In this document: in pieces, positions 3,353-48,100 of the stretch
How the letters are laid out: each line of letters opens with the position of its first letter
Position numbering within the stretch: position 1 is the first letter of the stretch
Virus record (IMG/VR): IMGVR_UViG_2778261164_000001
Coordinates: 1 to 64,000 of that record
DNA length: 64,000 bases
Origin: a virus
Taxonomy: Duplodnaviria > Heunggongvirae > Uroviricota > Caudoviricetes
Strand: one strand, 5' to 3'
The notes under the pieces: generated by a model
What the model was told of the DNA's origin: nothing
What the model saw: only the letters and a program-made list of their open reading frames with translations
Database searches by the model: none
Made by a program: the position numbers and the translations under genes

Positions 3353-4153
3353 ATGCAACAAACATTCAATGCGGATATGAATATATCAAACCTTCATCAA
3401 AATGTCGATCCTTCAACCACTCTGCCTGTTATTTGTGGTGTTGAAATTACGACCGACCGCGCTGGCCGTTACAACCTTAATGCTCTACACAGAGCGAGCG
3501 GACTCGGTGCCCATAAAGCGCCAGCTCAATGGCTAAGAACGCTGTCAGCCAAACAGCTCATCGAAGAGCTTGAAAAAGAAACTATGCAGAATTGCATAGT
3601 TTCGTTCGAAGGCCGTGGCGGCGGCACTTTTGCCCATGAATTGCTCGCTGTGGAGTACGCAGGCTGGATTTCTCCCGCGTTTCGGCTGAAGGTAAACCAG
3701 ACATTTATCGACTATCGAGCCGGAAGATTACAACCTGCTATTCCGCAGAGTCTCCCTGAAGCTCTCCGTTTGGCTGCCGACCTGGCAGAGCAAAAGCAAC
3801 GGCTGGAGCAAAAAATGCTTATGGATGCACCTAAAGTCGAATTCGCCGAACGCGTTGCTACCGCCAGCGGGGTTCTAATCGGCAACTATGCCAAAGTGCT
3901 CGGTCTGGGCCAAAACTATCTCTTCACCTGGTTGCGTGATAACGGAATTCTGATCGCAACCGGTGAACGCAGGAACGTCCCCAAACAAGAATACATATCC
4001 CGTGGGTATTTCACCCTTAAAGAAACCGTGATCGATACAAGCAATGGAAGCAGGATTTCTTTCACGACTCGTATAACCGGCAAAGGTCAGCAGTGGCTGA
4101 TGAAGCGATTGCTTGATGCTGGTGTGCTGGTACCTGTCGCGGCAACGCGCTAA
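3353..4153 (+). CDS. kilA: KilA (KilA-N domain protein with Ant-like C-terminal domain)
   Basis: 266 aa, the size of P1 KilA; C-terminal similarity to Ant; precedes repL. Confidence 0.75.
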   Translation: MQQTFNADMNISNLHQNVDPSTTLPVICGVEITTDRAGRYNLNALHRASGLGAHKAPAQWLRTLSAKQLIEELEKETMQNCIVSFEGRGGGTFAHELLAVEYAGWISPAFRLKVNQTFIDYRAGRLQPAIPQSLPEALRLAADLAEQKQRLEQKMLMDAPKVEFAERVATASGVLIGNYAKVLGLGQNYLFTWLRDNGILIATGERRNVPKQEYISRGYFTLKETVIDTSNGSRISFTTRITGKGQQWLMKRLLDAGVLVPVAATR

Positions 4154-4182: not shown

Positions 4183-5028
4183 ATGCTGGCTAAAGTCACT
4201 TTCCTGAGCTGTATAACGATGAGCGATTTTACTTTTTCTGGCTATGAATTGGCCTGCTTTGTAACACACTCCGGTCTATCCCGTAGCGCCGGGCATATCC
4301 TGTCGCAATGTGCAAATCTCGCGGCAACAACCAGTGAATACTTCATTCACAAGCCTCACCGCCTGATCGCGGCAGAAACTGGTTATAGCCAATCAACCGT
4401 CGTTCGTGCATTCCGTGAAGCTGTAAACAAAGGAATTCTGTCTGTAGAGATTGTTATCGGCGATCACCGTGAACGTCGCGCTAACCTGTACCGGTTTACA
4501 CCATCCTTTTTGGCCTTCGCACAACAAGCCAAAAATGCGCTGATTGAAAGCAAATTAAAGATCTCTTCAGCGGCAACCAAGGTTAAAGCTGTTCTCGCTA
4601 AGACATTGGCTTTATTTAATTTTTTATCCACACCCCCATGTCAAAATGATACCCCCTCCCCCTGTCAGGATGACGTGGCAATAAAGAATAAGAAGTCACA
4701 AGTTAAAAAAACAAAAAGATCAGTTTCCGGCGGTGCCGGAACGACCAGACTCAAAAAATTGACTTCATGGATCGCTGAGGCAAAAGCAAAGGCTGACAAT
4801 CTGCGGTTATCCAAAAAACGCGCTCAAAAACATGAGTTCAAGCAGAAAGTAGAGGCGGCAGCGCGGAAATATGCTTACCTGAAGAACAAGCGTTCTCCTG
4901 ATATTGGCGGGGTATCAAACTTCGATAATTTGCCGCATTGCATGACGGTAAACGAAGCTCTTAATGCGGTTTTAGCCAAAAATAAAGATAACGAACAATG
5001 GGGTATACCGGCAGGATTTAGAGGGTGA
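4183..5028 (+). CDS. repL: RepL lytic replication initiator (oriL expected inside the gene)
   Basis: 281 aa, the size of P1 RepL, directly after kilA. Confidence 0.75.
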   Translation: MLAKVTFLSCITMSDFTFSGYELACFVTHSGLSRSAGHILSQCANLAATTSEYFIHKPHRLIAAETGYSQSTVVRAFREAVNKGILSVEIVIGDHRERRANLYRFTPSFLAFAQQAKNALIESKLKISSAATKVKAVLAKTLALFNFLSTPPCQNDTPSPCQDDVAIKNKKSQVKKTKRSVSGGAGTTRLKKLTSWIAEAKAKADNLRLSKKRAQKHEFKQKVEAAARKYAYLKNKRSPDIGGVSNFDNLPHCMTVNEALNAVLAKNKDNEQWGIPAGFRG

Positions 5029-5078
5029 TAGATTGCTCTAATCTGGAGTCACCTGGCGTTTTCAGTTTGAGGTCGGAG

Positions 5079-5324
5079 ATGCAATCTGATTTTTTACAGT
5101 TAGCGATCGCTTTTGCAGGATATGTTTGTATTGGCTTCTGTGTATACATGATCAGCCGAAAAATGCTTGTCGATATCGACCGCAAAGAACAAGCAGAGGA
5201 GATCTTAGTATGGATTTTCTTTGGCGCGGTCTGGCCATTAGGGATCATGTTTGCTGCAACATTTCTTCTGATGTGGATATTCACCCTTCCAGGTGATTTC
5301 TATAGAAAAAAAGCCAGACATTGA
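5079..5324 (+). CDS. small membrane protein (two predicted TM helices)
   Basis: ATG at 5079 with GAGG RBS 6 nt upstream; hydrophobic stretches AIAFAGYVCIGFCVYMI and ILVWIFFGAVWPLGIMFAATFLLMWIF. Confidence 0.45.
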   Translation: MQSDFLQLAIAFAGYVCIGFCVYMISRKMLVDIDRKEQAEEILVWIFFGAVWPLGIMFAATFLLMWIFTLPGDFYRKKARH

Positions 5325-5447
5325 TACAATCGTTGCGGGTGCTTGAGGCTATCTGCTTCAGGCATTACCCGAAAAGCAGATAGAAGAAAGCCCCAGATAA
5401 CATTACGCGTCCTGCAAGACGCTTAACATTAATCTGAGGCCATATCT

Positions 5448-5654
5448 ATGCTTAGCATACGTAGATTAGCCTCTTACCGACCAAAAGGTCAAGGAGAAGC
5501 AGGCTATGAAGCAGCAAAAAGCGATGTTAATCGCTCTGATCGTCATCTGTTTAACCGTCATTGTGACGGCACTGGTAACGAGGAAAGACCTCTGCGAGGT
5601 ACGAATCCGAACCGGCCAGACGGAGGTCACTGTCTTCACAGCCTACGAATCTGA
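5448..5654 (+). CDS. mok-like overlapping reading frame of the hok locus
   Basis: 68-aa ORF starting upstream of hok and overlapping it in another frame, the classic mok arrangement. Confidence 0.45.
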   Translation: MLSIRRLASYRPKGQGEAGYEAAKSDVNRSDRHLFNRHCDGTGNEERPLRGTNPNRPDGGHCLHSLRI

Positions 5655-5661
5655 AAGGTAA
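5506..5661 (+). CDS. hok: Hok/Gef family type I toxin (51 aa)
   Basis: MKQQKAMLIALIVICLTVIVTALVTRKDLCEVRIRTGQTEVTVFTAYESER; shares TRK-LCE-R-R-G-EV-F-AYES pattern with Hok; AGGAGAAG RBS; below the ORF-track size cut-off. Confidence 0.8.
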   Translation: MKQQKAMLIALIVICLTVIVTALVTRKDLCEVRIRTGQTEVTVFTAYESER

Positions 5662-5736
5662 GAGACCTGGCGGGGAGAGATCCTCGCCACTCTTCGTGTG
5701 TCAGGTATCCTCAATGCACCCTTTCCTCTCCAAATA

Positions 5737-5762
5737 AAAAAGCTCCCGAAGGAGCTTTAAAA
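5737..5762. terminator. bidirectional rho-independent terminator (AGCTCCC-GAAG-GGAGCT between A-run and T-run)
   Basis: Perfect hairpin between hok 3-prime end and the convergent tube gene. Confidence 0.6.
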
Positions 5763-5777
5763 TACAAGGGATGACTC

Positions 5778-6287
5778 TTAATCCCACTCAATCCAGTTGT
5801 AGACGATACGAAGTGACGGGCGCACAGCGGCAGTCACATCTTCGGTACTAAAGTCGATTGCATCACTGTAGATTTTGCAGTCCAACATTTCAATTGTTGT
5901 AGCAGCTTTTGTCACAGCGTTAACCCCGGAAGATTTGGATTCAGGGGTCGCAGCCATCGTGATATCAACATAGTCCTTCGCCGCAATGCGATCTTTAATG
6001 AACTGAAGAATATCGCCTTCGATAGTCTCCACGCACTGGACCTGGATTTCCCCAGAGTTTCGAATTGGACCGTGCTGGTTGAACTTCACACCATTCGGAC
6101 CATAGTCCTCCACATCCTCGCGGGTCATTTCAGGAATTTGCGACGTGCGAACCAGTACGCTGATATCTTCATGGCCTGCAAAAGTGAGCTGGAATTCAGA
6201 AGATACCAGTCGTTCGCCTTTGGCCGCGTTGGCAGTATAGCGGCCCTTAATAAATTTACGGTTTCCCTTAGTGTTATTGTGCCCCAT
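5778..6287 (-). CDS. tail tube protein (tentative)
   Basis: 169 aa, last gene of the minus-strand structural operon downstream of the sheath-like gene; size and C-terminal pattern (VYNWIEWD) resemble myovirus tube proteins. Confidence 0.5.
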   Translation of the reverse strand: MGHNNTKGNRKFIKGRYTANAAKGERLVSSEFQLTFAGHEDISVLVRTSQIPEMTREDVEDYGPNGVKFNQHGPIRNSGEIQVQCVETIEGDILQFIKDRIAAKDYVDITMAATPESKSSGVNAVTKAATTIEMLDCKIYSDAIDFSTEDVTAAVRPSLRIVYNWIEWD

Positions 6288-47498: not shown

Positions 47499-47720
47499 AT
47501 GCAATCCATTAACTTCCGTACCGCGCGCGGCAACCTTTCTGAAGTGCTCAACAATGTTGAAGCCGGGGAAGAGGTTGAAATCACCCGCAGAGGCCGTGAG
47601 CCAGCAGTAATTGTCAGCAAGGCTACTTTCGAAGCCTACAAAAAAGCGGCGCTGGATGCTGAATTTGCATCCCTGTTTGACACCCTGGACTCCACCAACA
47701 AGGAACTGGTTAACCGATAA
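47499..47720 (+). CDS. phd: Phd antitoxin
   Basis: 73-aa product [39 protein letters not shown]... matches P1 Phd. Confidence 0.93.
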
Positions 47721-48100
47721 TGAGGCATATATCACCGGAAGAACTTATTGCGCTTCATGATGCGAATATAAGCCGCTACGGCGGCCTGCCTGGCATGTCA
47801 GATCCGGGCAGGGCAGAGGCCATTATCGGGAGAGTTCAGGCCAGAGTTGCCTACGAAGAGATCACCGACCTTTTCGAAGTCTCCGCCACCTACCTAGTGG
47901 CTACAGCGAGAGGGCATATATTCAATGATGCCAATAAGCGTACCGCGCTAAACAGCGCGCTGCTATTTCTACGCCGTAACGGGGTGCAGGTATTTGATTC
48001 ACCTGAACTGGCAGACCTTACTGTAGGCGCTGCGACTGGCGAGATATCTGTATCTTCTGTCGCCGACACGTTACGTAGATTGTATGGTTCTGCGGAGTAG
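47720..48100 (+). CDS. doc: Doc toxin (Fic-fold kinase)
   Basis: 126 aa; start overlaps phd stop (ATGA); sequence matches P1 Doc. Confidence 0.93.

Follow-up and report, generated by a model that had tools for sequence, protein, structure and literature searches.

Post-segregational killing by a hok locus has been proven experimentally for hok/sok (parB) of plasmid R1. In the R1 model, from which the mechanistic terms used here are taken, the full-length hok mRNA is kept inert by two sets of elements, tac with fbi and the Shine–Dalgarno (SD) sequence with ucb (PMC9841398). Cassettes of the same kind are carried by integrating lambdoid prophages; the record of phage 933W annotates hokW, mokW and sokW separately, and Rac-type and other lambdoid phages have further copies. 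Another relative, hokD (relF) of Escherichia coli K-12, lies directly after relBE and is regarded as inactivated by rearrangement (PMC12214031).

We have analysed a 64,000-nucleotide stretch of DNA from a virus of the Caudoviricetes, referred to as the window, and consider it likely that positions 5303–5721 hold an intact hok/mok/sok type I toxin–antitoxin cassette of the hokD/hokW subgroup that acts as a post-segregational killing module. The 933W, Rac-type and other lambdoid cassettes are 87–91% identical to it in DNA over window positions 5325/5334 to 5721, the homology ending with fbi. In both, tac, ucb, the Sok hairpin, the SD and fbi are the same elements in the same order, and 47–48 of the 51 Hok residues are identical. 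The lambdoid cassettes reside on integrating prophages, whereas that of the window is on a plasmid prophage. They also differ among themselves in the reading frame of mok, which is in frame with hok in 933W and Rac-SA53 (one T missing) but out of frame in the window, Rac 442/2 and strain E02.

The homology to K-12 hokD (91%) covers window positions 5492–5721, including the 3′ UTR with fbi, which is conserved. However, K-12 hokD is without the hok promoter, tac, the mok start and sok, all of which are present in the window. The R1/F-type hok/sok (parB) loci have the same gene organisation as the window cassette and both match Pfam PF01848 and the same Rfam family; an addiction-module role on a low-copy replicon is to be expected for both. 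The two are set apart by the strong terminator of R1 hok/sok, which has no equivalent of its own in the window cassette, and by the experimental proof of post-segregational killing for R1.

The repL–bplB interval of P1-like phage-plasmids

The window belongs to a P1-like phage-plasmid. Its first 25 kb are ~98% identical to E. coli and Salmonella plasmids of ~92–98 kb, and it also encodes the C4 antisense RNA of immI, P1-type tRNAs and parB. The genes and boundaries that define the setting of the cassette are as follows.

3353–4153: kilA, preceding repL
4183–5028, plus strand: repL, left neighbour of the hok segment
5043–5735: segment replacing rlfA–rlfB–pmgF; homology to NC_005856 stops at 5042 and resumes at 5736
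5079–5324: 81-residue ORF for a two-helix membrane protein (PHROG 3772), function unassigned, within 5043–5735 and ahead of the hok cassette
5778–6287, minus strand: bplB (‘tail tube protein’; tail tube or baseplate in reference records), right neighbour
47499–48097: phd-doc

The locus therefore has the position given for it in the original prediction, between repL on the plus strand and the tail tube gene on the minus strand, and the phd-doc and par systems that the element was said to carry are both there. In NC_005856 the replaced genes rlfA, rlfB and pmgF occupy 1.8 kb. The left junction retains the 11-nt core of the C1 operator Op55 (ATTGCTCTAAT, 5032–5042). A search with the PADLOC defence models gave no match for Hok or for the neighbouring 81-residue ORF.

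The place itself had been thought unusual, a view that does not hold. [quoted passage not shown] 2019, PMC6906374). The states of the site in the plasmid database PLSDB were counted as follows.

repL present (all P1-like plasmids): 507
intact hok arrangement at repL–bplB: 229
hokD::IS421 junction at window position 5683: 161
reference rlfA–rlfB–pmgF segment: 99

The hok arrangement is thus the commonest state of the repL–bplB site among P1-like plasmids, and most sequenced P1-like phage-plasmids differ here from the laboratory reference P1. The copies of the cassette on P1-like plasmids are 99–100% identical to each other, so that their conservation says nothing about selection. In the 161 interrupted plasmids, about four in ten copies, the IS421 sits between hok and fbi. 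The insertion site of IS421/IS186 in other plasmids is GGAGAGATCC (5674–5683), within a hairpin at 5668–5689. In pSvP1 an IS186B with the direct repeat GGATCTCTCC is found at the hok spot (Venturini et al. 2019, PMC6906374), and the reverse complement of this repeat is window 5674–5683. Of 5426 complete E. coli genomes, 235 have the whole 5025–5800 stretch and 4748 some related hokD-type sequence.

The hok gene of P1-like plasmids is already known and annotated. Many RefSeq plasmids contain an identical stretch of 501 bp, in which PGAP names the product ‘type I toxin-antitoxin system toxin HokD’ (WP_001313475.1), and the depositors of P1-like phage records name the gene MokW. The earlier description of the locus as unlisted reflects an ORF-length cut-off only. 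The plasmid records that we inspected have no annotation of mok, Sok, tac or fbi, and a literature search turned up no work on the function of hok in P1-like plasmids. As a discovery the locus has little significance, hokD being named in RefSeq and the 933W homologues being annotated as hok, mok and sok; what is new is limited to details, namely the loss of the terminator, the position of the junction at the core of the C1 operator, and how often the intact and the IS-disrupted alleles occur.

Toxin gene, leader and antisense RNA

The elements of the cassette, in order along the window, are listed below together with the hairpin that follows it.

5303–5330, plus strand: predicted hok/mok promoter from a consensus scan (TAGAAA, 16-nt spacer, TACAAT, with TG before the −10)
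5337–5348, plus strand: tac element (GGGUGCUUGAGG), 5′ end of the hok mRNA; pairs with 5709–5721 in the minimum free energy (MFE) fold
5386–5456, minus strand: predicted Sok antisense RNA, ~71 nt
5390–5395, plus strand: ucb (anti-SD) box; pairs with 5435–5440 in the MFE fold, sequestering the mok SD in the full-length mRNA
5436–5439, plus strand: mok SD (GAGG), 8 nt upstream of the mok ATG and paired with ucb in the full-length fold
5448–5654, plus strand: mok leader ORF, 68 residues, from the ORF list; overlaps hok out of frame
5463–5492, minus strand: predicted Sok promoter (−35 TTGACC at 5492–5487, 18-nt spacer, −10 TAATCT at 5468–5463)
5491–5496, plus strand: hok SD region (AAGGAG), from the sequence
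5506–5661, plus strand: hok, hokD-type toxin gene, 51 residues, identified by Pfam PF01848, identity to K-12 HokD and plasmid annotation
5643–5649, plus strand: CUACGAA motif around the Tyr47 codon (TAC, 5644–5646), candidate TadA A-to-I editing site
5668–5689, plus strand: GC-rich 3′-UTR hairpin just past the hok stop, from MFE pairs
5709–5721, plus strand: fbi, the fold-back inhibitory element (CCUCAAUGCACCC); forms 12 bp with tac, interrupted by one bulge
5739–5758, minus strand: P1-backbone hairpin terminating the convergent bplB operon; terminator-like on the minus strand only, by scan

An extent of 5440–5765 had been proposed. The locus was found there, but it starts further upstream, with the promoter at 5303–5330 and the 5′ end of the mRNA at about 5337.

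The 51-residue product of 5506–5661 matches the Pfam HOK_GEF profile (PF01848) with 78.7 bits, where the cut-off is 22 (E = 2.4e-22), over profile positions 1–42 of 42, and 48 of its 51 residues (94%) are identical to those of K-12 HokD/RelF. This bears out the assignment of the ORF to the Hok/Gef family, and the resemblance is not a matter of chance. PHROG 251, ‘MokW-like host killing’, also matches the peptide (E = 4.9e-32), and the identity to the R1/F-type Hok protein is 42%. Two NCBIfam Hok models scored below their curated cut-offs, NF007279 (Hok family) at 49.5 bits against 73 and NF007290 (HokA) at 38.1 against 89, so the PGAP name hokD on WP_001313475.1 must rest on other evidence or rules; these sub-threshold scores leave the Pfam family membership of Hok unaffected. 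A second Hok-family gene was not found by tblastn within the window.

The peptide has the family features of a hydrophobic stretch (LIALIVICLTVIVTALV) and a cysteine, Cys30, within DLCEV. In HokC, HokD and HokE the pattern is a conserved Cys in LCE and, close to the C-terminus, another Cys or a Tyr that can be edited (PMC12214031), and editing at the Tyr position has been reported for hokC, hokD and hokE (PMC12214031; bioRxiv 10.1101/2025.08.07.668861). The Tyr47 codon of the window hok is TAC and lies inside CUACGAA; this motif is a candidate for editing by TadA, which would recode Tyr47 to Cys. Toxicity was found in 42 of 45 diverse Hok peptides tested (bioRxiv 10.1101/2025.08.07.668861), among which the window allele was not identified. 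The hok SD, AAGGAG, is kept in eight of nine relatives; in strain 135 one G is replaced by T.

The 68-residue frame at 5448–5654 had been taken for mok, and this identification is correct to the exact coordinates. It is homologous to annotated mok genes; compared by eye with the Mok annotated in phage Rac, it has 63 of 68 residues in common (~93%). The Mok peptide matched neither a Pfam nor an NCBIfam family, as would be expected because only the translation of mok matters.

The Rfam model RF01794 (‘sok’) matches 5337–5511 of the plus strand over its full length with 114.9 bits, the gathering score being 59. The match runs as far as the hok AUG, and what the model represents is therefore the leader of the sense strand, with the Sok target in it; the Sok antitoxin is transcribed from the strand opposite to this match. 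We dismissed several low Rfam matches in the region, namely CRISPR-DR46, ceN48, sbrA and, at 21 bits, a ‘sok’ on the minus strand, since none came near its gathering score. The −10 of the predicted hok promoter aligns with TAGAAT of the relatives, and the RF01794 match begins 7 nt downstream of it, at 5337.

The ends of the predicted Sok RNA were mapped from the annotated sokW of phage 933W, with which they coincide. In this RNA an unpaired 5′ tail leads into a long hairpin, which is followed by a U-rich 3′ end; the sequence to which it is complementary includes the SD and start codon of mok. Its hairpin folds with −32.9 kcal/mol (z = −6.0), and none of 200 shuffled sequences folded equally well. 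A Sok-like antisense promoter had been suggested for the opposite strand near 5420–5520, where we place a predicted one (5492–5463) by eye and by homology to 933W sokW; its −10 is weak, TAATCT agreeing with the consensus in only three of six positions, and the consensus promoter scan did not flag it. The region of the Sok 5′ tail and the mok start (5437–5456) varies among the relatives at 11 of 20 columns and is among the three most variable 20-nt bins, whilst the bins of the hok coding sequence mostly have 0–2 variable columns of 20, the last of them (5637–5656) reaching 7 of 20. From the variable Sok tail and mok start we can only infer a possible fit with diversification of Sok specificity.

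Fold of the mRNA and its 3′ end

The predicted mRNA, 5337–5765, has an MFE of −165.7 kcal/mol (z = −8.25) and is closed by the tac/fbi helix of 12 pairs. The pairing of the mRNA ends, for which folding had been suggested as a check, is present in the fold, between 5337–5348 and 5709–5721. The helix is invariant in eight of nine relatives and the bulged base of fbi is the variable one, being T or C. As a folding control we used an R1-type hok/sok sequence, which was verified against NC_004998 and many other plasmids (100% identity in each case) and the DNA of which can be aligned to the window only in short patches. In the same test the control behaved as the window did, with closure by tac/fbi, pairing of the mok SD with ucb and formation of a 5′ tac hairpin after truncation.

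When the window RNA is truncated at its 3′ end, the 5′ tac hairpin forms in the MFE fold and the mok SD remains paired; forcing the tac/ucb fold on this RNA gives a structure 9–13 kcal/mol worse. The mok SD of the truncated R1-type control is likewise paired in its MFE fold (the forced-fold penalty refers to the window RNA only), so the MFE test cannot discriminate here and its outcome does not count against the locus.

Conservation of the fold was assessed in nine hokD/hokW-type loci with the structure derived from the window. The proportion of cells forming a standard pair was 93% for the structure as given, 92.5% in shuffled controls and 36–42% in slid controls, a percentage that leans in favour of the structure because this was taken from one of the aligned sequences. 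The count of pairs changed on both sides is the better evidence: there are 9 for the structure as given, against 3.1 ± 1.4 in shuffled and 0–1 in slid controls. The fold is thus conserved among the relatives. One of these 9 double changes, U–A for C–G at 5357/5375, is that of the window itself and maintains the leader helix, and the hairpin at 5668–5689 (helix 16) shows both double and one-sided changes among the relatives.

The 3′ end is where the window cassette departs from its relatives. Five of the eight aligned relatives carry their own terminator (AACCCGCTTCGGCGGGTTTTT) right after fbi, whereas the alignment shows no intrinsic terminator of its own after fbi in the window, where the cassette abuts the P1-backbone hairpin at 5739–5758. 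This is the ‘strong hairpin terminator’ of the original prediction. The hairpin exists, but as a hok terminator it was misread: it lies within DNA homologous to reference P1, where it is found between pmgF and bplB, and TTTATTTGG follows it on the minus strand, whilst the plus strand has UUU and then AAAA. With its T-run on the minus strand, it serves as the terminator of the convergent bplB operon. It is nevertheless the sole candidate for a 3′ end signal of the hok mRNA, and would be a weak one on the plus strand. Judged from the alignment, the lost terminator is the main structural departure from the hok family. Activation of hok mRNA begins at its 3′ end.

Role of the cassette on a plasmid prophage

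The mechanism we propose follows the R1 paradigm. The analysis shows which sequence elements are there, how the full-length mRNA folds and that this fold is conserved, and from the paradigm we infer transcription, 3′ processing, Sok turnover, toxicity and a stabilisation phenotype for the window cassette. A stable mok–hok mRNA would start at about 5337 and be untranslatable owing to the pairing of 5′ tac with 3′ fbi and of the mok SD with ucb. Slow trimming of the 3′ end would remove fbi, upon which the leader would refold and mok become translatable, the translation of hok being coupled to that of mok. As long as the plasmid is present, the short-lived Sok RNA (minus strand, about 5456–5386) would pair with the mok start region and RNase III would cleave the duplex. 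Were the plasmid lost or transcription shut off, Sok would decay first, and Hok would be made, enter the inner membrane and kill the cell. The cassette would thereby add a second addiction module beside phd-doc on a low-copy plasmid prophage, and post-segregational killing alongside phd-doc is its most likely role. The further killing or abortive module of the original prediction is thus the natural reading.

Several observations weaken this explanation. The terminator of most relatives is absent, so that the 3′ end, from which activation starts, can be placed only tentatively; the −10 of the predicted Sok promoter is weak; and MFE folding of the truncated RNA did not reproduce the opening of the mok SD. 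Chromosomal hok loci were reported not to bring about post-segregational killing (bioRxiv 10.1101/2025.08.07.668861). Related sequences are present in 4748 of 5426 E. coli genomes, and a resident Sok might suppress hok in trans; and the 161 IS421-interrupted plasmids mean that the intact state is often lost.

Some of these observations also bear on the chief rival, according to which the cassette is structurally intact but silent cargo, poorly transcribed or never activated, hitch-hiking on a successful P1-like lineage. We regard this as rather unlikely, though it has several points in its favour. The chromosomal hokA, hokB and hokC gave no post-segregational killing (cited in bioRxiv 10.1101/2025.08.07.668861), and the closest protein with a name, K-12 HokD, comes from a truncated remnant that covers only window 5492–5721. 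The native terminator has been lost, an IS421 between hok and fbi is tolerated in 161 plasmids, the near-identity (99–100%) of the P1-like copies makes their conservation uninformative about selection, and copies in resident prophages could provide a cross-reacting Sok. On the other hand, all the regulatory elements known from R1 are there in their proper places, the compensatory double change of the window allele keeps the leader helix, and 42 of the 45 diverse Hok peptides tested were toxic.

A less probable alternative, which we think unlikely, is that the main benefit of the cassette is abortive infection protecting the lysogen: an infecting phage would stop transcription, Sok would decay and Hok would kill the cell, with stabilisation of the plasmid a secondary effect. 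The hok/sok locus of R1 excludes T4, and the cassette family is found in many integrating lambdoid prophages, which have no need of plasmid addiction. However, there was no match in the PADLOC models, a survey of Hok found no enrichment near defence systems (bioRxiv 10.1101/2025.08.07.668861), and the element is a low-copy plasmid, to which post-segregational killing is of direct use. Abortive infection and post-segregational killing also share one mechanism and are not exclusive.

It is much less probable again, indeed very improbable, that the cassette is wired into the P1 lytic switch and does not serve addiction only. Features that point this way are its position directly downstream of the C1-controlled kilA–repL operon, the retained Op55 core, and the loss of its own terminator, with its end now at that of bplB. 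If this were true, read-through from the lytic replicon or collision with late transcription could shift the balance of hok to Sok, and Hok would contribute to host shut-down or to the timing of lysis after induction. The idea that the short ORF is no gene and resembles Hok by coincidence has nothing to recommend it beyond the general unreliability of short ORFs, and is refuted by the Pfam match (E = 2.4e-22), the Rfam match (114.9 bits), the 94% identity to K-12 HokD and the hokD annotation of identical sequences.

As a post-segregational killing module, the cassette would be a second potential addiction module beside phd-doc, which could help to explain the stable maintenance of these carriers of resistance genes. 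The interruption by IS421 at one hairpin offers a natural comparison of intact and disrupted alleles with respect to function.

Variation among hokD-type cassettes

The hokD/hokW cassettes fall into two types according to a 1-nt indel, a T at window position 5489 (within AAAGGTCAAGG; column 213 of the alignment). The T is present in the window, in Rac 442/2 and in strain E02, where it places the mok/hok overlap out of frame, the same arrangement as that of R1. It is missing in 933W, Rac-SA53 and others, where the mok start shares the reading frame of hok and yields a Hok with an N-terminal extension.

When the nine relatives are compared in bins of 20 nt, the bin at 5437-5456, which holds the 5' tail of the predicted antisense RNA Sok and the start of mok, has 11 of its 20 columns variable. 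This places it among the three most variable bins, level with 5357-5376 and below 5677-5696. Compensatory changes are seen in the matching 3' region (helix 6). Since up to 9 related hokD-type places are found in a single genome among 5426 complete E. coli genomes, a possible reason for the variability at 5437-5456 is specificity of Sok among copies that share a cell.

The 3' end of hok

The codon for Tyr47 of hok lies in a short motif located in the sequence:
5643-5649, + strand: CUACGAA, containing the Tyr47 codon

CUACGAA is also the anticodon-loop sequence of tRNA-Arg(ACG), the natural substrate of TadA. The stem flanking it, judged by eye, is of 3 bp only. Recoding of Tyr47 to Cys by A-to-I editing has been reported in hokC, hokD and hokE (PMC12214031; bioRxiv 10.1101/2025.08.07.668861), and by analogy editing within 5643-5649 would turn Tyr47 of the window Hok into Cys.

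Directly 3' of the hok stop codon, a GC-rich hairpin (5668-5689) is a hot spot for IS421/IS186 insertion, with the insertion point at 5674-5683. In PLSDB, the hokD::IS421 junction falls precisely at the position equivalent to 5683 in 161 plasmids, and 229 have the intact arrangement. An IS421 at 5683 separates hok from the 3' fold-back inhibitory element, and these plasmid loci parallel the IS-inactivated chromosomal hokA, hokC and hokE (PMC12214031).

The replaced segment and other P1-like features

On its left side, the replaced segment meets the sequence shared with reference P1 at a recombination junction (5032-5048) that lies in the C1 operator Op55/Orlf. Its 11-nt core, ATTGCTCTAAT, is kept and divergence begins right after it, the window continuing with CTGGAG where reference P1 has TATAAC. 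Because the core is retained, a C1 binding site may, from the sequence, still precede the replaced segment. The segment standing in for rlfA-rlfB-pmgF also includes a further frame:
5079-5324, + strand: 81-aa ORF with two hydrophobic helices, between repL and hok

This ORF matches PHROG 3772, labelled as of unknown function, with E=3e-54, and searches of Pfam, NCBIfam and PADLOC gave no family for it.

Two further features lie elsewhere in the window:
22445-22531, + strand: tRNA Ser(tga), 87 nt, the fourth tRNA (ARAGORN)
1680-1886, + strand: P1 immI region, C4 antisense RNA (69.6 bits) and a1/b1 target (55.5 bits) (Rfam)

The Ser(tga) tRNA was not reported by the Rfam tRNA model at the gathering score; the three tRNAs adjoining it (Asn, Thr and a Met-type CAT) were called by ARAGORN and Rfam alike. 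The ant/kilA genes are preceded by the C4 RNA and its a1/b1 target, in keeping with a P1-like element.
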